61,496 nt of DNA, taken from UHGV virus genome UHGV-0350099; one strand, written 5' to 3'. This document shows, piece after piece, positions 9,923-57,747 of this stretch. The DNA comes from a virus. How positions within the stretch are numbered: the first letter of the stretch is position 1; every line of letters starts with the position of its first letter. The notes beneath the pieces are model-generated. The model had not been told where the DNA came from, did no database searches, and was given only the letters and a program-made list of their open reading frames with translations. Made by a program: the position numbers and the translations under genes.

Positions 9923-9944
9923 ATAAGTAAGTAGCTACCTACCA
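9923..9944. promoter_or_regulatory. Palindromic intergenic motif GATAAGTAAGTAGCTACCTACC
   Basis: Member of dispersed TAAGTA/TACTTA family. Confidence 0.4.
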
Positions 9945-9954
9945 GGTGAGACAC

Positions 9955-10695
9955 ATGAGCCAAATCTTTTTCGATACCATCGACAACGACCAGTACGACT
10001 TCATGACAGAGTGGAATACCGCTGTTATGGACAAGTGGGTCGCTGAAAACATTGGTTTGTCGCGCTGTAAAGATGAGGCTGAACTCTTCGAGACGAAGTG
10101 GTTTGATTACCGCGACATGCATCCTCTGATGGCCACCTGTCTATTTACGGAGGCATACAAACGTCAGTACTCAAATATCATGCTGACGCACGGTCGCGAA
10201 CACTTTGAAACAGCTCCGTTCACCACCGGGTTAAAACGCCTGCCTTATCAGGAGTTGTCGACTGCCAATAAAACGTCGCTATGGAAAGCACGCCAGTTTG
10301 CTGACCGCTATTGCTGCTCATACGACTACTTTATCTCCACCGTTCTTTCCGCAGCTGCACGACGACTGTGGGACAAGCTGCCGCGTCCGCAGCATTTGTG
10401 GCAGCCAGAACTGATTGAGATATTTGAAGAGAAATTAGCCAGACGCGCAACAACCCGTCTGGATGACTCTCTCGTTAGCTTTAAGCATATGGGAGACATG
10501 CAGTTCAACCCGATTCAGGAAAGCTATTTTGGGTGGATTCTGGAGCGTTTACGCACCATCCCCCGCAGCAAGCGCATACGCGCAATTTTCTCCGCTATCT
10601 GGTTAATGGAAATCGTTCCAGAGCGCCTTATTTCCGCCCACTTTCCAGAAGAACTGGAAGAAGCACGGCGGTTTATTGATCCCCTATCTAATTAA
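9955..10695 (+). CDS. Hypothetical protein
   Basis: ORF frame with ATG 9955 after palindromic intergenic motif; no motif recognised. Confidence 0.5.
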   Translation: MSQIFFDTIDNDQYDFMTEWNTAVMDKWVAENIGLSRCKDEAELFETKWFDYRDMHPLMATCLFTEAYKRQYSNIMLTHGREHFETAPFTTGLKRLPYQELSTANKTSLWKARQFADRYCCSYDYFISTVLSAAARRLWDKLPRPQHLWQPELIEIFEEKLARRATTRLDDSLVSFKHMGDMQFNPIQESYFGWILERLRTIPRSKRIRAIFSAIWLMEIVPERLISAHFPEELEEARRFIDPLSN

Positions 10696-10703
10696 CTAAT
10701 ACT

Positions 10704-10723
10704 AGAAAACAATTTGTTTAAAA
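10704..10723. promoter_or_regulatory. AAACAATTTGTTTAA palindrome upstream of helicase gene
   Basis: AGAAAACAATTTGTTTAAAA followed by AAAGGAAAGCACATG. Confidence 0.5.
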
Positions 10724-10738
10724 AACAAAGGAAAGCAC

Positions 10739-12079
10739 ATGACCGAACTTTGCCATACAGGACGCGGGCTGTCCGAAGAGTTTGATGAAGATTTCCAGAA
10801 CAGACTGACGGCATATTTTTGTCGTGATCACGAGTTTCTTACTCGTGCGGGAGATCTGGTTGTGCCTAGCCAATTTGCCAATGCGGCCAATGCCATATTG
10901 GTTAATATGGTTTCGGGCTATTACCGTATGTACAAGAGCGCGCCCTCTTCATCTGCGATTCTGGATATGCTTAAGCGTGCGAAACGCGATAAGACTATCC
11001 GTGAGGAACTATTCGCCGATGTTGTTGCTGCGTTTAAGCGCATCCTTGCAGAAAAATTGTCTGATACCTCGTACATGGTTGACCAGGTATCAACCTTCGC
11101 AAAAAGCGTAGCGTTTGATGATGCTCTGATTAAGGCTGCTGAACTGAAAGAGAAGGGCGACTTTCAGGGGGCGATGGCAATCATGGCCAAGGTTCAGCAG
11201 ATTGGATCGAACGAAGCGACCGGAATCTATGACTACTACACCTCCGCAAGTGAGCGATTGAAAGCGCGTGAATATGAGGCTTCAGAGGAGTATGTGCCAA
11301 ACAGCATTACAACTGGACTCCCTCTGCTCGATAGGTTGCTGTACCAAAAAGGCTGGGCGAAGCGTGAAATGGTGCTCTTCATGGGGTTCGCTAAATCCGG
11401 TAAATCGACCGCAATGGGTGAGTTTTCCATAAACGCAACGCTTGCTGGCTACAATGTTCTGTATCTCTCGCTGGAGGTTCACACCACCATTTTATCCGAC
11501 CGTTTTGATGCAAGATTGTCGGAGACAGAAATGTCCAAGCTGGTGGAACGGCGCGATGAGGTTCATCGTAAGTTGGCAGAGTTGGGAGCCACGAAGGGGA
11601 TTGGTAGTTTGTGGGTTGTTGAGCGTCCGTCAGGAAGTATGTCACCGGCAGATCTGGATCGTATGCTTAACAGCATGAAAGCCAATGGCATGGTGCCTGA
11701 CATGGTTGTTGTCGACTATGCAGATTTGATGCGTGCCAGTTATGACCTTCGTGATGATCGCGCCAACATACGTAGTATCTATACCGACTTACGTGCTCTT
11801 TATGACAAACACAACGTTGCTGGTATCACGGCATCGCAGACAAACCGTGAAGGTGGCGCGTCAGAAGTTGCCACAATGATGCACGCTGCCGACAACATCG
11901 AAAAAGTACGTATTGCTGACCTGGTAATAACGATCAACAAAACCGAAGAAGAAGAAGCGAAAGGAGAGGCTCGTCTCTACTTTGCTGGTTCACGTAACCA
12001 GCAGGGAGGGATCAGCATTCGCGTTAAACAAAACCTCGAACAAATGCGCTTCATTGAGCGAATCTTAGACGTTACCTAA
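10739..12079 (+). CDS. DnaB-family/RecA-fold replicative DNA helicase
   Basis: Walker A GFAKSGKST, Walker B VVVDYADLM; conserved start context AAAGGAAAGCACATG. Confidence 0.65.
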   Translation: MTELCHTGRGLSEEFDEDFQNRLTAYFCRDHEFLTRAGDLVVPSQFANAANAILVNMVSGYYRMYKSAPSSSAILDMLKRAKRDKTIREELFADVVAAFKRILAEKLSDTSYMVDQVSTFAKSVAFDDALIKAAELKEKGDFQGAMAIMAKVQQIGSNEATGIYDYYTSASERLKAREYEASEEYVPNSITTGLPLLDRLLYQKGWAKREMVLFMGFAKSGKSTAMGEFSINATLAGYNVLYLSLEVHTTILSDRFDARLSETEMSKLVERRDEVHRKLAELGATKGIGSLWVVERPSGSMSPADLDRMLNSMKANGMVPDMVVVDYADLMRASYDLRDDRANIRSIYTDLRALYDKHNVAGITASQTNREGGASEVATMMHAADNIEKVRIADLVITINKTEEEEAKGEARLYFAGSRNQQGGISIRVKQNLEQMRFIERILDVT

Positions 12080-12161
12080 AAAATAAGCGTGGAGAACACC
12101 TCCACGCTTGATTCATTGGTGAAACAACTTTTCTTTTGCCAAACCACAAAAGAAAAACACA

Positions 12162-13342
12162 TGAGCCTTTATGTTATATCAACATTTAGGTTGGTCACAA
12201 TATTGCCTGTTAAAAGTGGAATTATCGTGAGCGAGCTGAAAGAGCTAATTACCGAATTAGATTTTGAACAATGGTTGGACACTGAAGGTATCGTTTATCG
12301 ACGTGGAGGCGTGAGTGCTCGCGGTCGTGAAGTGAATATCAAGGAGTGTCCGGTATGCGGCAGCTCCAACTGGAAGGTATATTTCAATCTGACCAGTGGC
12401 GTCGGTAAATGCTTCGCTGGTGATCATCCCGAAGAGATTCAGTTCAATAAGCTGGTCTTCCTCAAGCACTACAGCGGCAAATCACGACGACAGTTCGAGG
12501 AATATGTGCAGAACGCCCTTCTTTCCCAGGGGTGGGCACCAAAGAAAGAAGAGATAGTGCTTGCAAGCACAGTCGAGTTAGAGGGACCACTTGCACTCCC
12601 TCGTCATTACGAACTTCCTATAGATGGCCGTCTTCCAGACTATCTGGTTGAACGAAACATATCGCCTGAAATGGCAAAGTATTTTGACCTACGATACTGC
12701 GTCGAAGGCAAGCACGCTTATGTAGATCCGTATACAGATCAGGTTAAAGGACAGATATTCGATATGCGAATACTGATACCGGTTTACGATCTGGATGGGG
12801 TAATGAAGACATTTCAGGGGCGAGACATTACCGGTACAGCTGAACGTCGCTACCTCTTTCCTATGCAGCTTCCAGCTTCAGGTAAGTTTCTCTACAACGG
12901 CCATAATGCGGTCGGCAAACAGACTGTAGTTGTCTGTGAGGGGGCGTTCGATGTTATGGGAGTTAAACGAGCTATTTTTGATGAAGAAACATTACGTGAT
13001 TACGTGGAACCGATAGGAACGTTCGGGATGCATCTATCTGGTAACACCACTCAGGATGCAGAAGATCAGTTGGGCGCGTTCCTGACGCTCAAGGCGCGTG
13101 GATTACGTAATGTGATCATGATGTGGGATAGTGAAAAGCAAGCTATACGCAACACTATGGCCGCAGCCAGGCGACTGACCAGTATTGGTCTTAATGTCAA
13201 AGTAGCATGTTTGGGCGAGGAAGGACTCGACCCAGGCGATGCAACGCCAGAACAAATTATCAAAGCCTATTATCGGGCAAAACCGTATACCAAACAGTTG
13301 GAGTTGCAAAGCAAGGTTTTGGGCATTAAGGCGCTATCGTAA
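12162..13342 (+). CDS. DNA primase (zinc finger + Toprim)
   Basis: CPVCGSSNW...KCFAGDH zinc-binding motif; Toprim-like VVCEGAFDVMG and MMWDSEK; start chosen at ATG 12162 after AAAAACAC. Confidence 0.7.
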
Positions 13343-13354
13343 CAAGTGCCGCTA

Positions 13355-13377
13355 AAATAAGTAGATGATTACTTATC
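13355..13377. promoter_or_regulatory. Palindromic intergenic motif AAATAAGTAGATGATTACTTATC
   Basis: Member of dispersed TAAGTA/TACTTA family. Confidence 0.45.
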
Positions 13378-13417
13378 TTTCTGTAAGAATACTTTCATCT
13401 GTTAGCTAGGAGTTGGT

Positions 13418-14194
13418 ATGAAAGACGAAATTCAGAAATTAGCCTGCGACATCATTGATAAAACTGGTTTAGAAATCAGCGAGAGCAATCGACTAGACAT
13501 CATTGAAAAAGCGGTAAAAACAGCAATGGATCATATCGCCACTCGTTTGGTCGAGATCCCGCTACCAGGGCTACCTTATCTGAAAGTTGAGTTACACGTA
13601 TGGGGTGAACCTTCTTGTTCACGGCGTTCTGCATTAGTTGTTTTTATTAGCAAAGAAAACCCGCTCAGTCTTAAAGTGCAGGTTGGTGCATGGATGGATG
13701 GAAAAGTGATCTACACAAATACCGTTTTTTGTCTTTCAAACGACGAAACTATTGAAGCGGCCATTCAAGAAGCAGTTCTAGCAATGCGCAGCAGCGGTTT
13801 GATGAAGAATAACTACGAAGAGTACTTGCGTTCGATAAGTGGTGAAAAGACATTATCTCTGAAAGCAGATTTCGTTACCCCGAAAAATCTGTTGGAAGTC
13901 TTGCTTAATAAAGGGGCTAATGATGCCGTAAATGTAATCAGAGAGAGTGAGTATGCGTCTCTTTGCGACATGTGCAAAAGCCAGTTGGATCTGGTGCATA
14001 TCGTTATTGATGCTGGGAAGGCATGTGATGGCGTAATGGCGGAATTTGCTTGGAAGGTGGTCAGGATTGCTAACGAATTACCGATGATAGAGCAAGAGGC
14101 CAAATCATACGCCACCAATCATGTCACAGAGCTTCTTGTCCCCTATCGCTTAGAAAGCAATCAGCGCAAGATGGTTAGCTGGGGAAGTTGGTAA
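13418..14194 (+). CDS. Hypothetical protein
   Basis: 258-aa ORF, plus strand, preceded by palindromic motif at 13355-13377. Confidence 0.5.
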   Translation: MKDEIQKLACDIIDKTGLEISESNRLDIIEKAVKTAMDHIATRLVEIPLPGLPYLKVELHVWGEPSCSRRSALVVFISKENPLSLKVQVGAWMDGKVIYTNTVFCLSNDETIEAAIQEAVLAMRSSGLMKNNYEEYLRSISGEKTLSLKADFVTPKNLLEVLLNKGANDAVNVIRESEYASLCDMCKSQLDLVHIVIDAGKACDGVMAEFAWKVVRIANELPMIEQEAKSYATNHVTELLVPYRLESNQRKMVSWGSW

Positions 14195-14249
14195 TCTCTC
14201 CGCGCGTCGTTTTTTACGCAAATAACGATAGGTAAGTACAAGATTATTT

Positions 14250-14732
14250 ATGGCGGTAGTTGTGAAAGCTGATTTGTCAAAAATCCCTTCTATTTCAGGA
14301 AATAACGGTTATTCACTTCGTTGTGAGGAAGTAAAGATAAACGGTGAGTCGGCATATTGCAGCTATTCCGTTTGCCAGCACACCATTCTTGCCTTCAAAG
14401 AAAACCGTCTTCCTCGAACTTCTTTCCAGTCGTGCGCAGCCGCTATTAAAGCAGGCAAATGCAAGGCGTTAAAAATGATGGTTGAAGAGATTCGTAAAGG
14501 AGAATCTCTGTATTTCGAAGATATGACCGCGCTCATTAAGGAGGTTGAAGAACGGAATAAACAAGCCAGAACTATAAAACGAAAACGTGACAGTGTAACG
14601 ATTAATAGCATGGTTAAGAAGAGCACCACATCACAAACAGCGATCACTGACGTGTATGCGGCGTTGCTTGAAGAAACAACAAAAGAAACACATGAGCAAA
14701 TCGATCAACATATGGAGGCAAAACAACAATGA
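14250..14732 (+). CDS. Hypothetical Cys-rich protein
   Basis: 160-aa ORF with several Cys in the N-terminal half; no recognised motif. Confidence 0.45.
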   Translation: MAVVVKADLSKIPSISGNNGYSLRCEEVKINGESAYCSYSVCQHTILAFKENRLPRTSFQSCAAAIKAGKCKALKMMVEEIRKGESLYFEDMTALIKEVEERNKQARTIKRKRDSVTINSMVKKSTTSQTAITDVYAALLEETTKETHEQIDQHMEAKQQ

Positions 14733-16051
14733 AAAAGTTGATCGCACTTAAGCATAAGCTGGACGAAATGAAAGCTATGGGAACCAATGCAAAAAAAGAG
14801 GCATTGGCCAACATGGATGACTTCGAGCAAAGCATGGTTTCATTGATGCTCAACCCTTTCATCCGTTTTGGGGTAAAGAAATACAAAGTGGCAGAGCCGC
14901 TTAGTGAGTCCATCCCAAGTGACGAAAAAGCCATTGATGTACTGAATAAGCTGGCCTCTCGCGAGCTAACGGGGAACGCAGCAATAGCTGCTGTTGAGTC
15001 TATCGTGGCGTCAATGTGCGCCGATGGGCAGGACGTGTTCCGTCGTTTCCTCTTAAAAGATCCGAAAGCTGGCGTTGGGATTAGCCTATGCAACAAGGTT
15101 TTTGAAAATCCCATTCCGAAATTTGAGGTGCAGCTGGCGTCACCGTATAAAGAAAAAGGCGACAAATACCCCTTCAAGCCAAATCCTAAAGCCAAATGGC
15201 CGATGATTGGCAGCCTTAAGCTCGATGGTTTGCGAGTAATTTGTGAGGTTATTGTTGACGAGGAAGAGGTGAACTTCCTTTCTCGTACTGGTAATCCAAT
15301 CACGTCTCTCGATCACCTAAAGCCAGCCATGCTCGAATTAGGCAAACTTTCAGGCCACAAACACATCTTCTTCGATGGTGAAGGAACAGCCGGTTCATTT
15401 AACCAGTCCGTATCTGCATTGCGCAAAAAGAACGTGCAGGCAATTGGCGCTATTTATCATGTTTTCGACTTCTTCCTACCGGAATGGCGGGCACAGGCTA
15501 AATCCAAAGAGTATGCAAAGACAGGTATGAAGCTGAAAGAGCGCCTGGCTATTCTCGTGGCGTTGTTCAAAAACGATCGCAGTGAAGACTACGCGCAAGA
15601 CATTCACCTACATCCGTTCTACATCATCCATAGCCACGAAGACTTCATCGAACGCTTCATGAAACGCCTGGACGATAACGAAGAAGGGGAGATGGGCAAA
15701 GATCCGAACTCTGTTTACGAGTTTAAACGTACCCGCAGCTGGTGGAAGTTAAAAGACGAAGATTCAGAAGATGGTGAAATTATCGACTTTGAGCCGGGCG
15801 ACCCGGACTCTGGTTTTGCCAACACACTTGGAAAAATTGTTATTCGTCTTGAAAACGGCGTCATCGTTCGTGCGAGCGGCATTAAGCATAAATATCTGGA
15901 CGAGATCTGGAACAACAAAGAGAAGTACCGTGGTCGTATTGTCGAGGTTCATTGTCACGAGAAAACACCGGACGGCAGCTTACGCCACCCACGACTGAAA
16001 TGGCCGCGTTGCTTACGCGATACCGAAGATCGAATCGGAGATAAAGAATGA
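14729..16051 (+). CDS. ATP-dependent DNA ligase
   Basis: Adenylation motif KLDGLR (SLKLDGLRVI); size 440 aa; start overlaps previous stop. Confidence 0.8.
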   Translation: MKKLIALKHKLDEMKAMGTNAKKEALANMDDFEQSMVSLMLNPFIRFGVKKYKVAEPLSESIPSDEKAIDVLNKLASRELTGNAAIAAVESIVASMCADGQDVFRRFLLKDPKAGVGISLCNKVFENPIPKFEVQLASPYKEKGDKYPFKPNPKAKWPMIGSLKLDGLRVICEVIVDEEEVNFLSRTGNPITSLDHLKPAMLELGKLSGHKHIFFDGEGTAGSFNQSVSALRKKNVQAIGAIYHVFDFFLPEWRAQAKSKEYAKTGMKLKERLAILVALFKNDRSEDYAQDIHLHPFYIIHSHEDFIERFMKRLDDNEEGEMGKDPNSVYEFKRTRSWWKLKDEDSEDGEIIDFEPGDPDSGFANTLGKIVIRLENGVIVRASGIKHKYLDEIWNNKEKYRGRIVEVHCHEKTPDGSLRHPRLKWPRCLRDTEDRIGDKE

Positions 16052-16263: not shown

Positions 16264-16412
16264 TTCCATACATCTCATTAGCTTTTATGGGTGGCTTCCT
16301 TATCGGCTTCGGCATCTGTCGTGATTTAATTAAGCAGGAACTTAAAACCAAAACACTGTGCATCGGAAAGCGTGTGTATCGGGTAGTTCATGAAATAAAG
16401 GTTAGAAAATGA
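16260..16412 (+). CDS. Small membrane protein (50 aa)
   Basis: Unlisted short ORF MIPYISLAFMGGFLIGFGIC..., ATGA-coupled to both neighbours. Confidence 0.3.
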   Translation: MIPYISLAFMGGFLIGFGICRDLIKQELKTKTLCIGKRVYRVVHEIKVRK

Positions 16413-16699: not shown

Positions 16700-16708
16700 A
16701 AACATCAT

Positions 16709-16730
16709 GATAAGTATTTACTTACTTATC
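16709..16730. promoter_or_regulatory. Palindromic intergenic motif GATAAGTATTTACTTACTTATC (dispersed family)
   Basis: Near-perfect palindrome of TAAGTA/TACTTA half-sites; one of about 15 similar intergenic sites. Confidence 0.5.
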
Positions 16731-19155: not shown

Positions 19156-20259
19156 ATGAAAAATAGCTTTGACAGAGCACGCGCTGCGGAGAACACCTCA
19201 AAAGAGGCGATTGAGTATCTCGAAAGAGCATCTCAAATGCAGGCCGTTATGATCTCGCAGGTTAGCAATGACATGAGATTCTCGGACGCATTCATGTTAT
19301 TCACTCGCTTATCTCTGCTGATAACCAGACGTCGGCCAGAGATCGCTGTTCATTGTATTTTGATACATGTTTTTCCGCACATTGCCGATGTAAAAGTAAG
19401 TGATATTAATAGGTTCATGGTGAACCAACTGGTCAACCCACTAATACTGGATGGCAAAATTGTTATGGGCCGCCGCGTTTTCTCTCTGATGAAGCAGTTC
19501 CTTAGCTGGTGCGCCTTCCAGGGGATGATAGACGTGTCACCGTTAAACGATATGTCACTTAACAAAGTTGCCGGTGGCGCAAAGCCCACGCCCCGCGAGC
19601 GGAAGCTGACTGACGCAGAGGTATGGGTGTTCTGGAATATATGGGACTACTTCAATGTGTGCGCTGGTACAAAATGGGCGGCCAGACTGTGTCTTGTATC
19701 AGCAAGACGACCTGACGAAGTACTGCGGGCTAAAAAAAGTGAGTTCAATCTTAAGCGTGGAGTTTGGAATCAAGGCAAGAGAAACAAGTCAGCACGTGAG
19801 CATTCGCTGCCTTTAAGCACATTAATGCGCACATGCATTGAAGAGTTGTTCGAATACGGTAAAGACAGCCAGTGGCTCGTGCCTTCGAATAAAAAAATCG
19901 GGAAAGACCTTCCTATGTCTAAAGTGGCAATAGCCCAGGCATTACGTCGTATTCTGGAACGACCAGAACTGATGGAGCTTGAGCCATTTACACCCCGAGA
20001 TTTGCGCCGTACTGCGCGTAGTTACTTCCCAGCATTAGGCATAAGCCAGGAGGTATCACGCAAAATCATGAACCACAGTCTTGAGGGGATAGATCGGGTC
20101 TACGACCGGCACGATTATATGGACGAGATGCGAGACGCCTTAGAAAGTTTCTCGACGTACATCGCATCAATCGTAGAGCAACCGGATTTAGACGAAATTG
20201 ACCACAAATTTAAGGGAGATCGTCTATCAACAGAGCTTATTCGTGTAAATTTTTCATAG
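19156..20259 (+). CDS. int: Tyrosine recombinase / phage integrase family protein
   Basis: 367 aa; C-terminal catalytic-domain pattern ARRPDEV...HSLPL...RDLRRTARS...HSLEGIDRVYDRHDY consistent with R-H-R-Y integrase fold. Confidence 0.7.
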   Translation: MKNSFDRARAAENTSKEAIEYLERASQMQAVMISQVSNDMRFSDAFMLFTRLSLLITRRRPEIAVHCILIHVFPHIADVKVSDINRFMVNQLVNPLILDGKIVMGRRVFSLMKQFLSWCAFQGMIDVSPLNDMSLNKVAGGAKPTPRERKLTDAEVWVFWNIWDYFNVCAGTKWAARLCLVSARRPDEVLRAKKSEFNLKRGVWNQGKRNKSAREHSLPLSTLMRTCIEELFEYGKDSQWLVPSNKKIGKDLPMSKVAIAQALRRILERPELMELEPFTPRDLRRTARSYFPALGISQEVSRKIMNHSLEGIDRVYDRHDYMDEMRDALESFSTYIASIVEQPDLDEIDHKFKGDRLSTELIRVNFS

Positions 20260-20640
20260 AGACTTTATGGCCTCAACAACCTTTTGTGATGCGCCTTTCT
20301 CTTTACCGAATCGCTCGTTATATGCAGCAAGAACCTGTTTTTCGTCCTCGTTAAGAGGAGCAGTGCCTTCTTTGTATAAAAATGCTGCGAGTTCGGGTTG
20401 GCGTTCTTCCAGCACCATCATCATAAGACGACTTGGCTCAATACCCAGCGCCAGCGCCAACGGACGAACCTTATCGATAGGCAAAGGAATTTTGCCACTT
20501 TTAATTAAAGAAAGGTTGTTGGCATTTTTGTAACCAATAAGTCTGGCTATTTGGGCCTGACTCATAGGTGAGGATTCAATCAACCCTGCGATAAAAGCAG
20601 CGTAGCGACTTTCTATAAATTCAATCTTGTTATCAGACAT
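20254..20640 (-). CDS. XRE-family HTH transcriptional regulator (candidate phage repressor)
   Basis: 128 aa; N-terminal HTH MSQAQIARLIGYKNANNLSLIKSGK; convergent with integrase; palindrome GGTAAGTGCTTACC in its upstream region. Confidence 0.6.
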   Translation of the reverse strand: MSDNKIEFIESRYAAFIAGLIESSPMSQAQIARLIGYKNANNLSLIKSGKIPLPIDKVRPLALALGIEPSRLMMMVLEERQPELAAFLYKEGTAPLNEDEKQVLAAYNERFGKEKGASQKVVEAIKSL

Positions 20641-20685: not shown

Positions 20686-20891
20686 GATATTACATCAAAG
20701 GTTAGGGTTGTAAAGCTATTATCATTTTTTTCGATAGGCACTTAAAAGACCGGTTAAAGGCCATTGCACGGAGAAAAATTAGCCCAAAATAGGTAAGAAA
20801 ATCAACTTGCATATGATATGAATGTATTCAGTATTGATACAAATTTTAGTAGTATTCCTTACCATAGTATAAGTTAGAATGGATTGATTGA

Positions 20892-23327: not shown

Positions 23328-23349
23328 GATAAGTAACTACTTACCATAG
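23328..23349. promoter_or_regulatory. Palindromic intergenic motif GATAAGTAACTACTTACCATAG
   Basis: Member of dispersed TAAGTA/TACTTA motif family. Confidence 0.45.
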
Positions 23350-30038: not shown

Positions 30039-30292
30039 TCGCCTCCGATAATAGTATTCTATTCACAGTGTTGACATCTGTCAACGGCGACTGAATTTCA
30101 TCCGTTCATGCCACACCCCCATCCATCTCATGTATGTGACCTAAAGATGGTCAGCACAGCTTACCAAAATAAGACAACTAATTATCTTCGGTGATCTCAA
30201 TATTTTCCCCTGAACAAAGTTGACATGACGCCATAAACCCGTTCTCTGTTTGATATAATTGATACAGATTTTATAAGTAGGAACCTATTAGA

Positions 30293-35513: not shown

Positions 35514-35524
35514 CTCTTGAAAAT

Positions 35525-35544
35525 ATATAAGTACTTACTTATAT
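35525..35544. promoter_or_regulatory. Palindromic intergenic motif ATATAAGTACTTACTTATAT
   Basis: Member of dispersed TAAGTA/TACTTA family. Confidence 0.45.
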
Positions 35545-37125: not shown

Positions 37126-37180
37126 TCGCCTATTCATAACTAACAAAATAAGTAAACACTAACCACAAAAGGAAAAACAC

Positions 37181-41152: not shown

Positions 41153-41276
41153 CCCTCCAGATCGTATATTGGCGTAGATAGAATCTACGCCCCCTCAAAA
41201 TAGCTCTCATAGCGTTCTACAGTGATCCTGTCTTATTTTTAGTCATACAGACAAGCAAAGTTGCGTCACAACAAAT

Positions 41277-41294
41277 AGGTATATACTTACTTAT
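41277..41294. promoter_or_regulatory. Palindromic intergenic motif AGGTATATACTTACTTAT
   Basis: Member of dispersed TAAGTA/TACTTA family, upstream of sbcD-like gene. Confidence 0.4.
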
Positions 41295-45957: not shown

Positions 45958-45978
45958 GATAGGTAAGTGCTTATCTAT
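45958..45978. promoter_or_regulatory. Palindromic intergenic motif GATAGGTAAGTGCTTATCTAT
   Basis: Shares GGTAAGTGCTTA core with the palindrome upstream of the XRE repressor. Confidence 0.5.
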
Positions 45979-50536: not shown

Positions 50537-50557
50537 GTAGGTAGTTATCTATCTATG
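50537..50557. promoter_or_regulatory. Palindromic intergenic motif GTAGGTAGTTATCTATCTATG
   Basis: Member of dispersed motif family. Confidence 0.4.
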
Positions 50558-50705: not shown

Positions 50706-51809
50706 GTGTCACTCCTTTTGAATCGTGAGCATACGAACGGTCAGGTAACAAACGCATCGTATGCAAAAGTTATTGAGACGGTGCTTAAAAGCGGCGTGCA
50801 GGCTGATGATCGCACAGGCACTGGTACTTTAAGCACCTGCTACGTTCCCTCTTACTACATGCTTACTGGTGGGACTGTGCCGCTTATTTCTGGAAAGGCG
50901 GTAAATCTTAAGCCACTGCTTGTCGAACTTGAGTGGTATCTGAAAGGCACGGGCAACATCCAATTTCTCAAGGATAACGGCGTTAAGATTTGGGATGCAT
51001 GGGCCGATGAGAATGGCGATTTGGGGCCGGTTTACGGTAAGCAGTGGCGTCGATGGGAAGATACCCGCATCGTGAGCCATAGTGAATATCTGAGCAAGAT
51101 CGATACTTTCCGTGAACGCGGGTACAAAGTCGAGGGATACCTGGGTATCAGTGAAGATCGCGTAGTGCTGTCCCGTGAAATCGATCAGCTACAGCGTATT
51201 GTCGATACACTGCGCACGAACCCTACCGATCGTCGCATCATGCTTAACGCATGGAACGTAGGCGAGCTTGAGGATATGAAACTGCCACCTTGCCACTTTG
51301 TCTTCTCTTTGTGGAGTCGTGAGCTGGATTTTGAAACCCGTTTAACGATGGCAACTGACATTGGTCTTCAACACAGTCGCCTCGGTTACGAGTCTATCTA
51401 CACCAAGATGCTATACGATCTGGAGATGGACGGCAGTGTTACTGAAGCTGAACTGGATGAACTTGGAATCCCCAAACGCATCCTCAACTCCTGCCTCGTA
51501 CAGCGTAGCGTAGACACTTTTGTTGGTATGCCATTCAATATTGCTGGCTATGGCATTCTCACTCATTTTCTCGCGAAGATTACGGGTCACATGGCCGGTG
51601 CATTTGTGCATTTTGGCTTTGACGTGCATTTGTACAACAACCACATGGAAGGTGTGTGTGAGCTAATGAAACGACAGGCTCCAGAGCATTCAGATCCGGT
51701 CGTTATTTTCCCTCATGAATGGTCAGAGTTGGATGATTTCAAATGGGACGAGGTTTTAATTCTTGGCTATGACCCTCTACCGTGGATCAAGGTTCCAGTG
51801 GCGGTGTGA
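50706..51809 (+). CDS. thyA: Thymidylate synthase (ThyA family) with two insertions
   Basis: DDRTGTGTLS, IWDAWADENGDLGPVYGKQWRRW, RRIMLNAWNVGEL, LPPCH, GMPFNIAGY, C-terminal GYDPLPWIKVPVAV; start at GTG 50706 is tentative. Confidence 0.85.
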   Translation: MSLLLNREHTNGQVTNASYAKVIETVLKSGVQADDRTGTGTLSTCYVPSYYMLTGGTVPLISGKAVNLKPLLVELEWYLKGTGNIQFLKDNGVKIWDAWADENGDLGPVYGKQWRRWEDTRIVSHSEYLSKIDTFRERGYKVEGYLGISEDRVVLSREIDQLQRIVDTLRTNPTDRRIMLNAWNVGELEDMKLPPCHFVFSLWSRELDFETRLTMATDIGLQHSRLGYESIYTKMLYDLEMDGSVTEAELDELGIPKRILNSCLVQRSVDTFVGMPFNIAGYGILTHFLAKITGHMAGAFVHFGFDVHLYNNHMEGVCELMKRQAPEHSDPVVIFPHEWSELDDFKWDEVLILGYDPLPWIKVPVAV

Positions 51810-51810
51810 T

Positions 51811-52224
51811 ATGGCAAGAGGTATGTATGTCTTATGCGAAATTGAAGGTGTGCTGGCAAATGCCAGCCATCGTAAATCAGTATCTGACGCGGATGCAGGC
51901 CAGCTCATTGCCGGTGATGAACTCATTTTCCCCACCAGCCGTATGTTGCGTGGTTTTGCTCGCTCAGGGGCTGAAGTGGTGCTTATCAGTAGCCGCTCTG
52001 AAACTCTTGAAGCGCCAACTAAACGATGGCTGAAAGATTTTGGCGTTGATTATGACTGGCTTCATCTCGTACCGAATGGCACCAGTTATGAGAAGCATAT
52101 TAAGCGCACATTAGCGGAGCATAAAGGCGATCTGCTTATCGCTGCGCTGGTGCACGATCCTCGACTCCGTGCCGCTTTAGCCGACTCTCACCATCGACCG
52201 GTCATCTATGAGGTGAGCAAATGA
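51811..52224 (+). CDS. Hypothetical protein
   Basis: ATG 51811 overlaps thyA stop (TGATATG); 137 aa; no confident motif. Confidence 0.45.
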   Translation: MARGMYVLCEIEGVLANASHRKSVSDADAGQLIAGDELIFPTSRMLRGFARSGAEVVLISSRSETLEAPTKRWLKDFGVDYDWLHLVPNGTSYEKHIKRTLAEHKGDLLIAALVHDPRLRAALADSHHRPVIYEVSK

Positions 52225-52697
52225 AGATGATCGCTGCTGTTGGCCGTAACTATGAGATCGGCATAGCGAATGAACTCCCCTGGCGTTGTTCTACCGATCT
52301 GAAGCTATTTAAGAGACTCACCAAAAACGCCACTGTCGTTATGGGGCGTAAAACGATGGAAAGTCTCAAACGCCCTCTTCCAGAGCGTCATAACCTCGTT
52401 TTGACGCGCTCTCATGGCTTTGTACCAAATGGATTCTACCCTGCTGGTGTGGATGATGTGTTGCGATTACCAGAGCCTGTGTGGGTGATTGGCGGGGAAC
52501 AAATTTACTCGCTATTCATGCCGCATGTTGAAGAGATTTGGCTCTCCCACATCGGCGTTGATGTACCAAACGCCGATGCATTCTTCCCGGCAAGCATGAT
52601 GCGTAACTTAGGCTTTGTGCCTGTTGAAACAGCTTATACCCAACGAGCCAGCGAGGAAGAGCCTGGCTTTTCGCAGATCGTATACAGAAGGTCGTAA
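52221..52697 (+). CDS. Dihydrofolate reductase
   Basis: MIAAVGRNYEIGIANELPWRCSTDLKLFKRLTKNATVVMGRKTMESL matches DHFR N-terminal signature. Confidence 0.9.
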   Translation: MKMIAAVGRNYEIGIANELPWRCSTDLKLFKRLTKNATVVMGRKTMESLKRPLPERHNLVLTRSHGFVPNGFYPAGVDDVLRLPEPVWVIGGEQIYSLFMPHVEEIWLSHIGVDVPNADAFFPASMMRNLGFVPVETAYTQRASEEEPGFSQIVYRRS

Positions 52698-53341
52698 TGG
52701 ATTACCGGATTGGGATCACTGGTGCTCAGGGCAGTGGGAAAACAACCCTGGCTAAATATATCGACAAACATTACGGAATCCCTTACGTGGATGCTGGTGT
52801 CGGAAGTTTGATGAGCCGCCTCGGTGTTCGAGTAGGTGATTCTATGCCTCTATATGAGCGGCTTCAGATTCAAATGGAAATAGCAAAGCATATAGAGCTA
52901 CTTACGCGTGGAGTTGAAGGCTTTGTTATCGATCGCACACCTGCTGATGTTATGGCCTACACGTTGGATTTGGTCGGCCATACAAATGAAGATCGGTGTA
53001 TTGAGTTAGCCCTCGATATCGAAAAGTTTTGCCACAAAACTGCTATTTCAAACTTTAACGCCATTGCTGGCTTACGCCCGGGAGTCGCTCTCTCAGAGCG
53101 AGATTACTTGCGGTCACAACGAGCATCATTAGACCGTCTGTATGTCGCTCGTATTGATGCGTTGATGTGCGGGGAACTGACAAAAATTCACCTGCATCCG
53201 CAAAGGGGAGATCTGCAAACCTTCGTCGTTTCCAACCGGTATCGCACAGTTGAAGCAAGAGCCAGATCAGTGATGAGAATGCTAGATAACGCTGTAGAAA
53301 AGATAGAAAACCGGTTCTGTGGCCGAGTGACCGTTCATTAG
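52697..53341 (+). CDS. P-loop kinase, possibly deoxynucleoside monophosphate kinase
   Basis: N-terminal GITGAQGSGKTTLAKY Walker A; context; function inferred. Confidence 0.4.
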   Translation: MDYRIGITGAQGSGKTTLAKYIDKHYGIPYVDAGVGSLMSRLGVRVGDSMPLYERLQIQMEIAKHIELLTRGVEGFVIDRTPADVMAYTLDLVGHTNEDRCIELALDIEKFCHKTAISNFNAIAGLRPGVALSERDYLRSQRASLDRLYVARIDALMCGELTKIHLHPQRGDLQTFVVSNRYRTVEARARSVMRMLDNAVEKIENRFCGRVTVH

Positions 53342-53402
53342 AAATTGTTCGCCTCTTCGACATTGCGACAATAAAACTCTCAAAATGGGTTAAGGATAAA
53401 AA

Positions 53403-53822
53403 ATGTTTAGTGAAATGTTGCTTGAAGATGAACTGGATCGGAAAACAACAGAGGCTTTGATTCGTGTAGCGGACGAACATTCCCGGTCGCTTATGAGCGA
53501 TCGAGAGGCTCGTCTGGCTATTCGTGCCATATTCGAAACTGCGCAGGGGCTTGTTGGTACACAAGTGGGTGAAGCCATTAACATCGCCATGTCTCAGTTC
53601 AGTGAAGGCAGTAAAAAGCCTCTGTTTCCTATGCATTTGATGCTGGCTGGTGGCACGGTGCTTTATATCTCTGTTTGTCTGGATAGCAACCAAATCAATA
53701 TTCTCAACACTGTGTCAGGTAAGTGGAAAGATCCGATTGTCTGTGAAACCAGTGAAGAAACTTTGAAAAAAGCGGCTCAATTTGTACGTAGCGCACTACT
53801 TAAGGGCGCTAAGAAGTTGTAA
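53403..53822 (+). CDS. Hypothetical protein
   Basis: 139-aa ORF; no motif recognised. Confidence 0.45.
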   Translation: MFSEMLLEDELDRKTTEALIRVADEHSRSLMSDREARLAIRAIFETAQGLVGTQVGEAINIAMSQFSEGSKKPLFPMHLMLAGGTVLYISVCLDSNQINILNTVSGKWKDPIVCETSEETLKKAAQFVRSALLKGAKKL

Positions 53823-53831
53823 GGAGTTCTG

Positions 53832-54389
53832 ATGACAACGATTGTTGCAGGCATCGATATCGAGTCTACGGGACTGGATTTCCTTGCTGGTCATAAAATT
53901 ATTGAAATCGCAATTACCCGCTATGAACTGGAGACACAGAGACATATTGATAGTCTGGAGATGCGTTTTAACCCTCGCAGAAACATAGATCCGAAAGCTC
54001 AAGCCGTTCATGGCATTTCATTGGAACAGCTCGCAGCTGAACCTTTGTTGTCAAATCATGCCAGCGAAATTGGCGCTTATATGGGGGCATGTAGTGTGTG
54101 GGTTGCTCATAACGGCGAAGCATTTGATATACCATTTATTCGACACGAGTTTTCAGGGTATGGAGTAAGACTGCCAGAAGTTCCTGTTATAGATACTATG
54201 TTATCGGGATTGTGGGCCACAGAAGACGGTAAACGTCCCCGCCTTGAAGAGTTGGCCTTCTCTCTTGGCTTTATATACGATCATGCCAAAGCACATAGTG
54301 CCTTATATGACACAAACTTAATGATGCAATGCTTCTTTAAGGCACGTAATAAGTACGGATTTTTTAAATTACCCTCTGAAATTGTGTAA
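53832..54389 (+). CDS. DnaQ-like 3'-5' exonuclease (DEDDh family, epsilon-like)
   Basis: Exo I GIDIESTG, Exo II VAHNGEAFDIPF, Exo III HSALYDTN. Confidence 0.7.
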   Translation: MTTIVAGIDIESTGLDFLAGHKIIEIAITRYELETQRHIDSLEMRFNPRRNIDPKAQAVHGISLEQLAAEPLLSNHASEIGAYMGACSVWVAHNGEAFDIPFIRHEFSGYGVRLPEVPVIDTMLSGLWATEDGKRPRLEELAFSLGFIYDHAKAHSALYDTNLMMQCFFKARNKYGFFKLPSEIV

Positions 54390-54394
54390 AACAA

Positions 54395-54433
54395 AAGCCT
54401 ACTTTAAAAAGTTTAAAGTAGGCTTTCTTTTAA
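54395..54433 (+). terminator. Rho-independent terminator (long AT-rich stem)
   Basis: AAGCCTACTTTAAA-AAG-TTTAAAGTAGGCTT followed by TCTTTT. Confidence 0.55.
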
Positions 54434-54547
54434 AGAACAGTCGCCTTTCAATCATTTCCTGCCTGTATTTAATACTTTTCCGCCTGATAGGTTTAGTCAA
54501 AATGTAGCCATCGAAACGCAAATGTAACCAAACAGAAGGAGACTTAC

Positions 54548-55357
54548 ATGAGTTCGGTTGAAAATGTAATGACAAATGATGATCTGGACGAGCTGACAGC
54601 CATGTTGCAATCACTTGATGAACCAGTAAAAAAAGCTGCACAGGTTGAAAATACTGATGATATTGACGATCTGCTGCTCGGCCTAGATGCTGGCGTAGCC
54701 ATGAGTTCTGATGATGTTGCCGAAGAACTGTTCAATGAAGAAAAAGCAGGTGATTTCAGCTCTGCTTTAAATGAGTTGGAGTTAGCGCATGAGCCTATAA
54801 ACGTAATTAACGTTGAAAGTGTTGAAGCTGCCGAAAACGAGCCAGAACAATTGGGATTTATTGAGGTTGAAGAGTGTGTTGAGGTTAATGATGAATTAAA
54901 AGTTCAACAGTCAAATGATAGCAATACAAATAAAAAAGCTCGTACTGCAAGAGGTCCTCGTTTTACTTTAAGTGATAAAGATGATTCGTTTTTCAATAAA
55001 GCGGGCTTAGAAAAAGATATTTTCTTAGACGCTTACGATAACGCGCCTGTCAAAGCAAAGGATAAGATATTAAACCTTCTTAATTGGTTTAGCGGAGGTC
55101 CAGATATTAGTGTTTACACGGTAATTTCCATGAGACACCTTCTCACAGAAAAGAAGGCTACAAGTAATAGTATTAAGATTGCTTTAATGAGCAATCCAGA
55201 AAAACCGTATCCGCTTAACACTGCGTCAACTCAGGCTGGGCAAATGATGGCTGTATTTCCAGCGACAGGAATTGCCGTTAGAGACGGTGGAAATCTAACA
55301 TTGAACGAAGAATCACCGATCGTTAAGAAGTTTGTCGCGGAGTACACTATTGGATGA
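54548..55357 (+). CDS. Hypothetical acidic protein (AT-rich gene)
   Basis: 269-aa ORF, Asp/Glu-rich N-terminal half; lower GC than neighbours. Confidence 0.45.
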   Translation: MSSVENVMTNDDLDELTAMLQSLDEPVKKAAQVENTDDIDDLLLGLDAGVAMSSDDVAEELFNEEKAGDFSSALNELELAHEPINVINVESVEAAENEPEQLGFIEVEECVEVNDELKVQQSNDSNTNKKARTARGPRFTLSDKDDSFFNKAGLEKDIFLDAYDNAPVKAKDKILNLLNWFSGGPDISVYTVISMRHLLTEKKATSNSIKIALMSNPEKPYPLNTASTQAGQMMAVFPATGIAVRDGGNLTLNEESPIVKKFVAEYTIG

Positions 55358-55432
55358 CGTTCCCCTACTGAAAATAAAGCCCATAGAGAGCTTTATAGTG
55401 CTGGGTAAGCCAATCACATACCCAGCACCACA

Positions 55433-55480
55433 AAAACGCGCCAGAGAGCTTCTCGTTTGCATTTCTGGCGCGTTTTATTT
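55433..55480 (+). terminator. Rho-independent terminator (12-bp stem)
   Basis: AAACGCGCCAGA ... TCTGGCGCGTTT followed by TATTTGATT. Confidence 0.55.
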
Positions 55481-55509
55481 GATTGCCAGACATAAAATCA
55501 AATGCAAAA

Positions 55510-55530
55510 ATAGGTATTTACTTACCTATC
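55510..55530. promoter_or_regulatory. Palindromic intergenic motif ATAGGTATTTACTTACCTATC
   Basis: Member of dispersed motif family, upstream of methyltransferase gene. Confidence 0.45.
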
Positions 55531-55540
55531 GAGAAAGAAG

Positions 55541-56134
55541 ATGATTGCAGCCGAAAAAATCAAACAGCGAAAGCGCGACAACTCTCTTCGTGACCTCTGG
55601 AGAACACCTGACTGGCTGTTTTCTGCCATTCAACGTTATCTTGGAGTGACATTTGATGTTGACGTTGCCTGCAACAAGGACAATGCAAAGCTGCCTAATT
55701 TCATAGGCGTTGAGCGTGATGCTTTGAAATCTGAATGGGGACAGCCAGGTACAATTGCCTTCCTCAATCCACCCTACTCCAAAATCTCCCCCTGGATTGA
55801 TGCAGCTATACGTGAGCAGGCTCGCGGAGTTACAACAGTGATGCTAATTCCTCAATCCCTAGATACAAAGTGGTATGAGCGTGCAACAGAGTGTGCGAAT
55901 GAGACGATTATTCTGTCTGGTGGCCGCGTAGCGTTTGTCGAGCCTGACGTCAATCTGGGTCAGGTAGAAGTAAACATCAACCCCGGTGGCAGTATGCTCG
56001 TTGTTTTTCGAGGATTCTGTCAGGACGCTGGGCACTCTATAAGCAAGATCCCTTTGGACGTCATGAAAAGTCTGGGAGGGTATGATCCTGCGAATGTGGT
56101 CAGAAAAAAAAGACCATCAAAGAAGGCTGCTTAG
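55541..56134 (+). CDS. DNA N6-adenine methyltransferase (phage Dam-like)
   Basis: Motif IV AFLNPPYSKI (NPPY); 197 aa typical of small phage N6A methyltransferases. Confidence 0.6.
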   Translation: MIAAEKIKQRKRDNSLRDLWRTPDWLFSAIQRYLGVTFDVDVACNKDNAKLPNFIGVERDALKSEWGQPGTIAFLNPPYSKISPWIDAAIREQARGVTTVMLIPQSLDTKWYERATECANETIILSGGRVAFVEPDVNLGQVEVNINPGGSMLVVFRGFCQDAGHSISKIPLDVMKSLGGYDPANVVRKKRPSKKAA

Positions 56135-56320
56135 TTTGTTCTGGCGTCTGTAATTAGCCTGCTTCTGTATATATAAATAACTACATATTAATTATTAATA
56201 TACGGAAACAGGCTGTTTTGTATCAGAGACTCCAGACCTGAACATCACTACAGAATCCACTAGAACCCCTTCCCAGACGCTTTAAAATCGATTTTATGAA
56301 CCACTTTAAGGAAAACTAAC

Positions 56321-56551
56321 ATGCCATACCCGACCAATGTTGTTGCGCTCGTAGAGAGCGATTTTCTGGCTAAGGCTCGTGAAATGATGAAAGACCGCGA
56401 GCAGGCTTTCAACTTGTACGAATGGGCAATTAAGTGCTTGCATCTTGGGGAACATCGCGAACTTGTTGAACAGCTTTTAGGTGAGTTGATCAACGAGGTG
56501 TTTGCCTTGAATGTTCAACTACATGGTCGAGAAAATAATCAATCGAAATGA
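56321..56551 (+). CDS. Hypothetical small protein
   Basis: 76-aa ORF. Confidence 0.4.
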   Translation: MPYPTNVVALVESDFLAKAREMMKDREQAFNLYEWAIKCLHLGEHRELVEQLLGELINEVFALNVQLHGRENNQSK

Positions 56552-57135
56552 TAGATAAGTACAAACTATTCATAAAATGAATTGTAAGTGCTAAGATCTG
56601 ATAGTTTCCAGTCGTAGACTGGAGACTCGACCTGATGGGTGGGGGTAAGCGTCACTGGCGTCAGGTTTAAAAAAGCTCACTACCAGCGTAGAACCGGTGC
56701 CGTTTAGGTGTCGGGGAAGGGGGAACCAAAGTGAGCGGAGACAAGGGTCACTTTATGATTGTCGAGTCTGGGGTGTTTCGAGAGGTTGAATCCAGTACTC
56801 CCCTTCATAAAGTGTGGGAAGATCTCGGTTCTGGGGTGCTGTCATCCATAACTTCCCAAGTCTAAGCTGGCAGTAGACTTAGGCCATAACTTTTCAGGTT
56901 ATGAAACGACCAGGTTGGTGAGGGATTTTTATACTCACCTCCCTGGGAGAGTATTACCTGAAAAGACAACCTCTCACTTCGTTCGAGGTGAACTTCACTC
57001 ACTTCGTTCGTTCAGTTCAGGTTTATAAAAACCTGTTCTGGGAAGTAATTTGTTTATTTTAATAATTATTAACACGCACGCGTGTGCGCACGCGCGAGGA
57101 AAAAAATCGGCGCGGCGCTTGATTCAGGAGTTTAT
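56552..57135. other. About 580-bp non-coding region with direct repeats and a GC-rich double palindrome
   Basis: No ORF of 60 aa or more; CACTCACTTCGTTCG tandem repeat near 56985-57015; CACGCGTG/GTGCGCAC palindromes at 57073-57098. Confidence 0.4.
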
Positions 57136-57729
57136 ATGACGACGAAGACACCAGCCCGATCGCAAGACAAAACTCGCAAAAAAGCCAAAAACAAAAATTC
57201 TCCCCGCACCAATTCCACAACGCCTGTCGTAGAGTTCAATCCCCAGCTTAAAACCGTGAAAATCTTCAGTGATGGCTCTTGCCTTAAAAATCCGGGTGGC
57301 CCGGGCGGTTACGGTATAGTTCTCCAGTATCGTGGTGAGGAACGCGAGTTCTCAGATGGTTTTCATAGCACCACCAATAACCGCATGGAGATGATGGGGG
57401 CACTTATCGGGCTGGAGCGTTTGAAATATCCATGCAACGTTATTTTGCACTCTGATAGCCAGTATCTGAAAAACGGCATGACACAGTGGATGAAATGGTG
57501 GAAACGCAATGGATGGGTGACTTCTGACAAAAAACCGGTAAAGAATGTTGATCTGTGGAAGCGTCTGGATGAGGCTGCAAGTCGACATAATGTTCGCTGG
57601 AAGTGGGTTAAAGGTCACGCCGGGCATCGTGAAAATGAAATATGTGATCGACTCGCGAAGATCGCAGCTTTTTCCGCAGCAGATATGCCTCACAAGAAAG
57701 ATATTGGTTTTGTTTACAACAAGCAGTAA
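57136..57729 (+). CDS. rnhA: Ribonuclease HI with basic N-terminal extension
   Basis: [57 protein letters not shown]; start at ATG 57136 after RBS AGGAG. Confidence 0.9.
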
Positions 57730-57747
57730 GTAAGTGTTTACCTATCA
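57727..57747. promoter_or_regulatory. Palindromic intergenic motif GTAAGTAAGTGTTTACCTATC
   Basis: Member of dispersed motif family. Confidence 0.4.

Follow-up and report, generated by a model that had tools for sequence, protein, structure and literature searches.

A dispersed 20-bp palindrome in an SSU5-group phage-plasmid and an XRE-type protein as its candidate repressor

The 61,496-nucleotide (nt) stretch of viral DNA considered here at its full length (UHGV virus genome UHGV-0350099; hereafter, the window) carries many copies of a 20-bp palindrome, ATARGTAAGT·ACTTACYTAT, scattered among its intergenic regions. On balance, these sites are probably dispersed, promoter-embedded operators of a 128-amino-acid (aa) XRE-type repressor encoded by the plasmid element itself. 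Megablast comparisons revealed the window to be ~96–98% identical to Escherichia phage Cyrano (pLF82 of E. coli LF82) and ~77–82% identical to Salmonella phage SSU5, with one 801-bp stretch being 100% identical to E. coli plasmids, such as NZ_CP027369.1. Judged by these identities, the window is a member of the SSU5 group of phage-plasmids. The gene encoding the candidate binder and the promoter predicted for it are as follows:

20254..20640, minus strand, gene for a 128-aa XRE-type helix-turn-helix protein, homologue of CYRAN_45 of Cyrano
20687..20714, minus strand, tool-predicted sigma-70 promoter of the XRE gene, TTTACA-16-TAATAT

In the mechanism proposed, the XRE protein, acting as a dimer or as a pair of dimers, would bind the palindrome where it lies in the spacer between the -35 and -10 elements of a promoter, over the transcription start, or just downstream of that start. 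Such operators would precede the operons for lysis, replication, recombination and nucleotide metabolism, as well as the structural-gene operons of relatives. Occupied sites would deny RNA polymerase access or halt its progress, thereby keeping the plasmid prophage silent, with the copy found at the promoter of the XRE gene providing for negative autoregulation. Upon induction, loss or inactivation of the repressor would free all of these promoters together. It is from the enrichment, intergenic placement and conservation of the sites, their overlap with predicted promoters and their linkage to the XRE gene that we infer both the identity of the binder and the repression that would follow binding.

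An earlier note on this DNA, drawn up from the sequence alone, had described a dispersed palindromic motif, and all 17 positions that it gave indeed carry the sequences described. When TARGTNNNNACYTA was sought allowing for at most one mismatch, 25 matches were found in the window, as compared to 4.18±2.00 (maximum 8) in 100 dinucleotide-preserving shuffles, none of which reached 25. According to a map based on open reading frames (ORFs), 18 of the 25 matches are centred in the non-coding 8.9% of the window, while three others (35528, 50676 and 55511) lie upstream of true start codons. When gaps of 25 bp or more in the window were counted, 16 of 39 contained the motif. A matrix scan returned 20 loci of at least 15 bits, as compared to 0.4 in shuffled sequence; this comparison is circular, the matrix having been trained on the same sites, and the scan was accordingly used only for compiling the list of sites given below.

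Gibbs alignment of 50 loci from Cyrano and SSU5 yielded aaaaaATAaGTAAGTACTTACcTAtcat, with the consensus ATAaGTAAGTACTTACcTAt. The palindrome so defined reads ATAAGTAAGT·ACTTACTTAT and often extends further, as ATGATAAGTAAGT·ACTTACTTATCAT. Each arm consists of a repeated 4-nt unit (TAAG TAAG T), such that several registers look palindromic and spacers of varying length came to be described earlier. The two 8-nt halves separated by a spacer, previously taken as the structure of the site, give way to a 20-bp palindrome of 4-nt periodicity (TAAG TAAG T·A CTTA CTTA). The best-kept parts of this unit are its outer halves, ATARGTA-N6-TACYTAT, which are matched at 14 of 14 positions in the sites at 13357, 16710, 41275 and 55510. 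Across the ten pairs of mirrored positions, combinations able to pair were as frequent as expected for independent columns. At positions 4 and 17, for instance, A faces C in 5 of 19 sites, with such A·C clashes being as frequent as A-T pairs. Given this lack of covariation, each half is conserved towards the consensus, as in a site of the protein-binding type, and not towards the other half, as in an RNA structure or a cruciform. The operators are thus two-fold symmetric, with independently conserved halves, as judged from the Gibbs consensus and the covariation test.

The sites of the window are listed below as the extents of the 20-mers, with strand given as '.' throughout and with the promoters spelled out in the list being plus-strand predictions. 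The earlier listing stands for the 14 strong sites, whereas those that it placed at 14227, 37147 and 56550 proved to be weak or half sites; it had missed the weak site at 30269 and the site at 4868, the latter falling outside the range that it had covered.

4868..4887, ATGTGTAAGTACTTACCTAC, before the holin gene; core GTAAGTACTTAC perfect at 4872-4883
9923..9942, strong, ATAAGTAAGTAGCTACCTAC, directly 5' of the ribosome-binding site of a 249-aa gene (CYRAN_31 homologue)
13357..13376, strong, ATAAGTAGATGATTACTTAT, gap between the primase gene and a 258-aa gene
14232..14251, weak, GTAAGTACAAGATTATTTAT, good left half only; 13.5 bits, under the cut-off
16710..16729, strong, ATAAGTATTTACTTACTTAT, start of the tRNA region; 33.1 bits
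20669..20688, strong, at the XRE promoter; core GTAAGTGCTTAC at 20673-20684
23329..23348, strong, ATAAGTAACTACTTACCATA, gap between the CobT-like and CobS-like genes; TGGTATATT 5 nt downstream
30269..30288, weak, TAAGTAGGAACCTA, 3' of TGATATAAT, before the uvsY-like gene; 9.6 bits
30738..30757, strong, ATAAGTAAGTACTGATCTAT, filling the spacer of predicted promoter TAGATA-17-TATCAT (start 30732), before the gp32-like single-stranded DNA-binding protein gene
35523..35542, strong, ATATATAAGTACTTACTTAT, filling the spacer of predicted promoter TTGAAA-17-TATATT (start 35517; 10/12 matches), just 3' of a terminator
37144..37163, weak, AATAAGTAAACACTAACC, before a 91-aa gene; 11.6 bits
37475..37494, strong, ATAAGTTAGTATCTACCTAT, within predicted promoters TTTACA-17-TAGTAT and TTTATA-16-TATCAT (the latter with start 37470, its spacer filled by the palindrome); adjoins the ATG of a 59-aa gene
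41275..41294, strong, ATAGGTATATACTTACTTAT, before the sbcD-like gene
45959..45978, strong, ATAGGTAAGTGCTTATCTAT, ruvC-nrdA gap, filling the spacer of predicted promoter TTGATA-17-TAACAT (start 45956); terminator hairpin then at 45985-46006
50537..50556, strong, GTAGGTAGTTATCTATCTAT, immediately 3' of the mazG stop codon
50671..50690, strong, ATGAATAAGTGGTTACTTAT, adjoins the thyX ribosome-binding site
55510..55529, strong, ATAGGTATTTACTTACCTAT, beginning at the -10 element of predicted promoter TTGCCA-17-AAAAAT (start 55483), before the dam-like methylase gene
56551..56570, partial, ATAGATAAGTACAAACTATT, good left half, poor right half
57726..57745, strong, GTAAGTAAGTGTTTACCTAT, overlaps the RNase H stop codon; then TATCAT

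The sites are retained in relatives of the window. Whole-genome scans, in which sites of at least 15 bits were counted, revealed 28 sites in Cyrano and 27 in SSU5, lying in matching gaps from ~2 kb to ~85 kb, with the block at 85–108 kb being nearly devoid of sites. The gaps that contain sites include that between the terminase and portal genes, that after the capsid gene, those of the tail genes and that before the holin gene, and one site lies upstream of parB in Cyrano. Seven further sites fall in gaps of structural and lysis genes of Cyrano and SSU5, the structural-gene gaps being located outside the window, such that the motif is not confined to replication and nucleotide-metabolism genes, as had been thought. 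In a Klebsiella ozaenae plasmid with an nrdA region only 67% identical to that of the window, the motif is kept at the corresponding gaps, with unchanged outer halves and a different centre (ATAAGTAAACATTTACTTAT). Automated footprinting, in which the window was compared with SSU5 and the Klebsiella plasmid, was noisy; in SSU5, the sites were 81.5% identical, as compared to 72% for the remaining gap sequence, a difference that, coming from a rough and noisy alignment, lends weak support only.

In both the window and Cyrano, the site before the holin gene is followed by an identical stretch, TGATATAAATCCGCCATCCCGAT, that includes the extended -10-like TGATATAAA (window 4900-4925, corresponding to Cyrano 26690-26715); the tail-fibre genes upstream differ.

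In the region spanning 4001-61496, 13 plus-strand sigma-70-like promoters were predicted. Six of these, at five loci that together span less than 2% of the sequence, overlap sites of the motif. Where the palindrome fills the spacer, its last TAT often provides the first bases of the -10 hexamer; more generally, the terminal TAT opens a TAnnnT hexamer in ~8 of 22 sites, as scored partly by inspection, with a slight bias for the plus strand. Our own inspection further placed the sites at 30269 and 50671 just 3' of an extended -10 element and those at 4868, 23329 and 41275 just 5' of one. A -10 element at a fixed offset was not found in most sites. Such placement fits operators that would occlude promoters or block elongation, and is unlike what would be expected of a directional promoter element or of an upstream activator site.

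Considering the intergenic regions more broadly, strong hairpins of the intrinsic-terminator type at 45985-46006, 48345-48363, 50603-50621, 35488-35508 and 36625-36644 separate many of the co-directional nucleotide-metabolism genes. Canonical sigma-70-like promoter matches are depleted in the window, numbering 11, 23 and 13, as compared to the 29.7, 27.4 and 27.5 expected; relative to shuffles, depletion is strong, at 11 vs. 29.7±6.4 for 4001-24000 and 13 vs. 27.5±6.4 for 44000-61496.

The XRE gene itself is linked to the motif. A perfect copy, GGTAAGTGCTTACC, had been noted at 20672-20685 upstream of this gene, and is present there as described. Because the predicted XRE promoter ends at 20687, adjoining this palindrome, transcription is expected to start inside it. 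When the region upstream of the XRE gene was aligned among plasmids of E. coli, Klebsiella, Yersinia pestis (pMT), Cronobacter and Enterobacter, the promoter and the palindrome, (G/A)GTAAG(C/T)ACTTACC, formed the best-conserved block, while in the distant Klebsiella ozaenae plasmid two sites lie upstream of the XRE gene. The XRE protein matches PHROG 8, 'transcriptional regulator' (E 6.6e-12), and found no match when compared with PDB sequences. A single-sequence model (predicted local distance difference test score, pLDDT, 73) gave as best fold matches Stl, a Salmonella phage repressor, C.AhdI and lambda cI, with probabilities of up to 0.99; the predicted structure thus weakly resembles the helix-turn-helix repressors of the Cro/CI-XRE type.

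Searches by tblastn identified the XRE and integrase genes as a pair in 961 plasmids, with the same spread among genera as relatives of the nrdA region. The sole exception lacking the pair is SSU5, which was isolated as a virion; the block found at 19156-21104 of the window (glutaredoxin gene, moron, integrase, XRE and a 70-aa gene) is absent from SSU5 (compared at 42596-42761). SSU5 may be a natural repressor-less derivative, and loss of the XRE-integrase module would explain its lytic behaviour. The missing XRE gene of SSU5 was accordingly dropped as proof against the XRE protein being the binder, given that XRE and integrase belong to the core of 961 plasmid relatives. In the LF82 lysogen, CYRAN_45, the XRE gene, is transcribed ~10-fold above the local background, and Cyrano is induced 39-fold by ciprofloxacin (PMC9928086). 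In the same expression data, the only motif-preceded gene among those expressed in the lysogen is CYRAN_81, found 3' of the weak site at 78472 (PMC9928086).

A parallel is offered by Acinetobacter baumannii pA230-2, assigned to a phage-plasmid group with persistent genes common to the SSU5 group (PMC7969092). An XRE protein 40% identical to that of the window is encoded at the same position in this plasmid, divergently from a small gene and the CobT/CobS-like operon. In a blind count of short palindromes, AGTCA-N4-TGACT was found 8 times, as compared to at most 3 times in shuffled sequence. Within 33.7 kb, there are 11 intergenic copies of the full site, TCAGTCAGT·ACTGACTGA, and the XRE control region accounts for three of them. 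A scan of genome contigs with the 14-mer of this motif gave hits scattered at random over all taxa. These copies are positioned in the 33.7-kb stretch as follows:

pA230-2 sites: 2956, 3629, 9423, 10616, 16896, 19027, 19480, 19797, 19869, 26773, 31973

The pA230-2 palindrome shows the same 4-nt periodic design as does the motif of the window, with TCAG replacing TAAG as the unit. Moreover, the two best promoter predictions of the locus, as well as the XRE promoter (TTCAAA-18-TATATT), hold the palindrome in or at the core promoter. The putative recognition helix of the XRE protein reads NANN[LI]SLIKSG[KR] in all of the enteric elements, these having the TAAG motif in common, and RPNVLSMIKSGE in Acinetobacter. 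It is because of this co-variation of helix and motif, together with the XRE promoter carrying operators in each of three lineages, that the XRE protein was ranked first as binder. The co-variation is suggestive and not decisive, since all proteins of these elements have diverged between the lineages. Overall, the earlier proposal that a single repressor, for which the XRE protein is the candidate, acts at scattered operators gains from the promoter overlap, the site at the XRE promoter in five genera, the XRE-integrase core of the plasmid-form relatives and the Acinetobacter parallel, whereas its limitation to the replication programme does not stand.

Other proteins were considered as binders and set aside. 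Although annotated as 'transcriptional regulator', CYRAN_114 (Cyrano 100780-101301, outside the window) belongs with the FljA-type repressors of phase-1 flagellin (Pfam Flag1_repress, E 1e-80). It appears to serve lysogenic conversion rather than phage regulation, and presents no link to the sites. Nor is there such a link for CYRAN_98, an S24 peptidase lacking a DNA-binding domain, or for the small proteins encoded at 16048, 20892 and 38007, which belong to no informative family. The Fur (GATAATGATAATCATTATC), LexA, CRP, NrdR and TrpR boxes, considered as sites of host factors, do not appear to match the motif in spacing or sequence.

Several observations weigh against the XRE protein as a repressor acting at all of these sites. 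In Pfam, the protein scores below threshold with both HTH_19 (18.9 bits; cut-off 30.2) and HTH_37 (16.4 bits; cut-off 27), while its fold matches are weak, with E values of at least 0.16. SSU5 retains good sites without having an XRE gene, and the motif remains constant while the XRE proteins of the various elements are only 57–68% identical, a constancy for which a conserved host factor is equally possible. Only about one third of the sites have a convincing promoter around them, and several adjoin a ribosome-binding site or a stop codon. Three sites lie 5' of a terminator, directly so at 45959 and by ~50–80 nt at 50537 and 57726, and this order of site, terminator and gene is not explained by simple promoter occlusion. 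Finally, the core of the motif, GTAAGT·ACTTAC (GTAAGTACTTAC), corresponds exactly to the published G3A variant bound by SlmA, the TetR-family nucleoid-occlusion factor of the host, such that the actual binder, or a further one, could be a host protein.

Of the readings that do away with a repressor, that in which the palindromes serve as RNA hairpins acting in processing, stability or termination, or else as DNA cruciforms, draws on the sites being palindromic and intergenic, with some adjoining stop codons or terminators. The mirrored positions do not, however, covary, predicted hairpins are weak (mean folding energy, -3.3 kcal/mol), the stems are AT-rich and lack a U-tract, and distinct GC-rich terminators are found nearby. 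With covariation absent and folding weak, this reading was discarded as extremely improbable. The idea of a translation signal placed at a constant distance from the start codon was likewise ruled out, as the distance from site to start codon varies from 0 to more than 100 nt. The motif could instead be a phage-specific promoter or activator site, read by a phage sigma factor, RNA polymerase or activator so as to turn on middle and late genes. This would be in line with the depletion of canonical sigma-70-like promoters in the window, with the many operons preceded by sites, late operons of the relatives included, and with the TAnnnT hexamer begun by the last TAT. Yet the site is palindromic even though nearly all genes share one direction, its distance from start codons is not fixed and most sites lack a -10 element at a fixed offset. 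Furthermore, a palindrome in an optimal 17-bp spacer or on the start is in the position of a repressor and not of an activator, one site lies on the start of the XRE promoter, three precede terminators as detailed above, and no RNA polymerase or sigma factor gene is annotated in Cyrano or SSU5, a statement that reflects annotation only and not an exhaustive search. A promoter or activator class of this sort is thus very unlikely. What survives of the phage-specific promoter class, raised earlier as the alternative to a repressor, is its link to the -10 element, with the terminal TAT starting a -10-like hexamer in about one third of the sites; a separate class is not indicated.

A further reading has SlmA as the main binder, silencing genes from promoter spacers, with SlmA-DNA complexes on the plasmid also inhibiting FtsZ near the plasmid or, upon lytic replication, throughout the cell. 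The SlmA site is GTGAGTACTCAC, in which positions 1, 2, 4 and 5 must be G, T, A and G, position 3 can be any purine (with G-to-A changing the dissociation constant from ~50 nM to ~60 nM) and position 6 can be any pyrimidine (Tonthat 2011, PMC3020112). As the core of the motif is such a high-affinity variant, host SlmA may bind too. The TAAG/CTTA flanks and the 4-nt periodicity of the motif are, moreover, common to the 24-mer SlmA consensus, AAGTAAGTGAGCGCTCACTTACGT, and to the natural site SBS17 (TCAACGTTAGTGACCATTTACTTACTTTTG; ...ATTTACTTACTT...) (PMC4423959). When GTRAGYRCTYAC was sought allowing for at most one mismatch, seven matches were found in the window, as compared to 1.31±1.18 expected, and six of the seven are motif sites. 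The SlmA rule, GTRAGY·RCTYAC, is matched at 12 of 12 positions at 4872 and 20673 and at 11 of 12 in four sites; at most two mismatches to the rule, as also seen with SBS17 and SBS12, are found in 13 of 19 sites, as compared to 2 of 400 control intergenic windows. SlmA is known to repress transcription when its site lies between the -35 and -10 elements of a promoter, and a multicopy plasmid bearing SlmA sites, together with SlmA, leads to a lethal division block (PMC3573117). Finally, a conserved host protein would account for the constancy of the motif: SlmA is 85–100% identical among the closest homologues listed, all from Enterobacterales.

Set against SlmA as the main binder is the fact that the Acinetobacter relatives share the design of the palindrome with a TCAG unit and with three sites in the XRE control region; Acinetobacter is not known to have SlmA. 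In addition, no SlmA homologue is encoded on SSU5-like plasmids. Sites with perfect outer halves (13357, 16710, 41275 and 55510) break critical positions 4 and 5 of the SlmA site. A matrix built from five published half-sites, a very small training set, does not single out the motif sites, giving 21 matches in the window as compared to 14.9 in shuffled sequence, and scores the phage consensus at 12.9 bits, as compared to 21–27 bits for published sites. Motif sites are nearly all intergenic, whereas only 2 of 24 SlmA sites of the E. coli chromosome are (PMC5519180). Lastly, a constitutive host repressor offers no obvious route for induction. SlmA as the main binder is unlikely. A more limited part for the host protein, in which it would occupy at least the near-consensus sites (4868, 20669, 23329, 35523, 45959 and 57726) beside the repressor, is a possibility that can be put forward tentatively.

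By analogy, the proposed system, with the XRE protein as repressor, is functionally of the same kind as the C1 operators of P1, the conserved inverted repeats (CIRs) of phiC31 and the stoperators of mycobacteriophages, without being a member of any of these families. In P1, a plasmid prophage, one repressor acts at many unlinked operators over ~100 kb, replication functions included; the operators of P1 are 17 bp long and asymmetric, and C1, of 283 aa, belongs to another protein family. Accordingly, the comparison with P1 C1 drawn in the earlier note holds for function, both being plasmid prophages in which one repressor would act on many dispersed operators, and fails for operator type, the sites here being 20-bp palindromes that reach into lysis and, in relatives, structural-gene gaps, with a 128-aa XRE-type protein as the candidate. 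The c repressor of phiC31 recognizes 17-bp CIRs that are found with a phage-specific early promoter class. These offer the closest match in layout, with a conserved palindrome at the promoter of the repressor itself and in many intergenic regions, although host, repressor family and sequence are unrelated. The stoperators of mycobacteriophages L5 and Bxb1 are asymmetric 13-bp sites that silence the prophage in an orientation-dependent manner, partly by blocking elongation. As here, tens of such sites lie in short intergenic gaps genome-wide, late genes included, whereas the present sites are symmetric, not of one orientation, and in many cases overlap core promoters. The IncP plasmid RK2 encodes KorB, a ParB-family protein that also acts at a distance and whose palindromic operator is found about a dozen times around the plasmid, allowing global repression by one plasmid protein. 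For the ParB-like proteins of the present element, no evidence of such a role was found, apart from the Cyrano site upstream of parB. Chromosomal SlmA sites share sequence with the motif and also occur as tens of dispersed copies, yet are mostly found within genes and act on FtsZ, whereas the sites considered here are intergenic and in promoters (PMC3020112, PMC4423959, PMC3573117); many of them also break SlmA positions 4 and 5 while retaining the outer halves.

SSU5-like phage-plasmids are widespread, including pHCM2 of Salmonella Typhi, pMT1 of Yersinia pestis, pLF82/Cyrano and hundreds of Klebsiella, Enterobacter and E. coli plasmids, and can carry resistance genes. In the searchable literature, neither an account of how lysogeny is maintained in these elements nor a description of the 20-bp palindrome was found. 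A conserved operator at ~20–30 positions, together with a candidate repressor, offers a testable map of the lysogeny circuit. Were SlmA to bind as well, it might be exploited in one or more of three ways. Replication of the element could titrate out SlmA as an additional silencer, providing a switch coupled to copy number; SlmA could be part of a checkpoint that stops septum closure over unsegregated plasmid copies; and thousands of SlmA-activating sites could constitute a DNA-encoded block of host division during lytic replication. If true, a plasmid prophage would engage host division control by way of DNA sequence alone, a new possibility.

The gene content of the window was read off the annotation of Cyrano. 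Nearly all genes are on the plus strand, and begin with those for tail fibres and lysis, followed by toxin-antitoxin and partition genes and then by those encoding a helicase, a primase, a ligase and tRNAs. The middle of the window contains genes encoding the integrase, the XRE protein, CobT/CobS-like proteins and the Pol III alpha subunit, followed by UvsY, a gp32-like protein, an exonuclease and RecA, and then RepA. At the end of the window are genes encoding SbcCD, RuvC, NrdAB, MazG, ThyX, Pnk, DHFR, Dam and RNase H. The RecA/UvsX-like ORF (33144-35483) comprises 779 aa in the window and in Cyrano, as compared to ~358 aa for the SSU5 recombinase, a difference suggestive of an insertion, for instance of an intein.

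A second dispersed palindrome, (T)AGAAAACAA-N-TTGTTTAA, is found at 7471, 10707, 36671, 48403, 58633 and 59362, with a weaker copy at 56206. Its copies sit in gaps that lack the first motif, 16–35 nt 5' of the start codons of parA, the helicase gene, a 141-aa gene, nrdB, a tciA-like gene and a 189-aa gene. Exact AACAA-N1-TTGTT is found 6 times in the window, as compared to at most 3 times in shuffled sequence, while the distant Klebsiella plasmid contains 10 copies within 40 kb. These may be the sites of a second regulator or of a translational operator.

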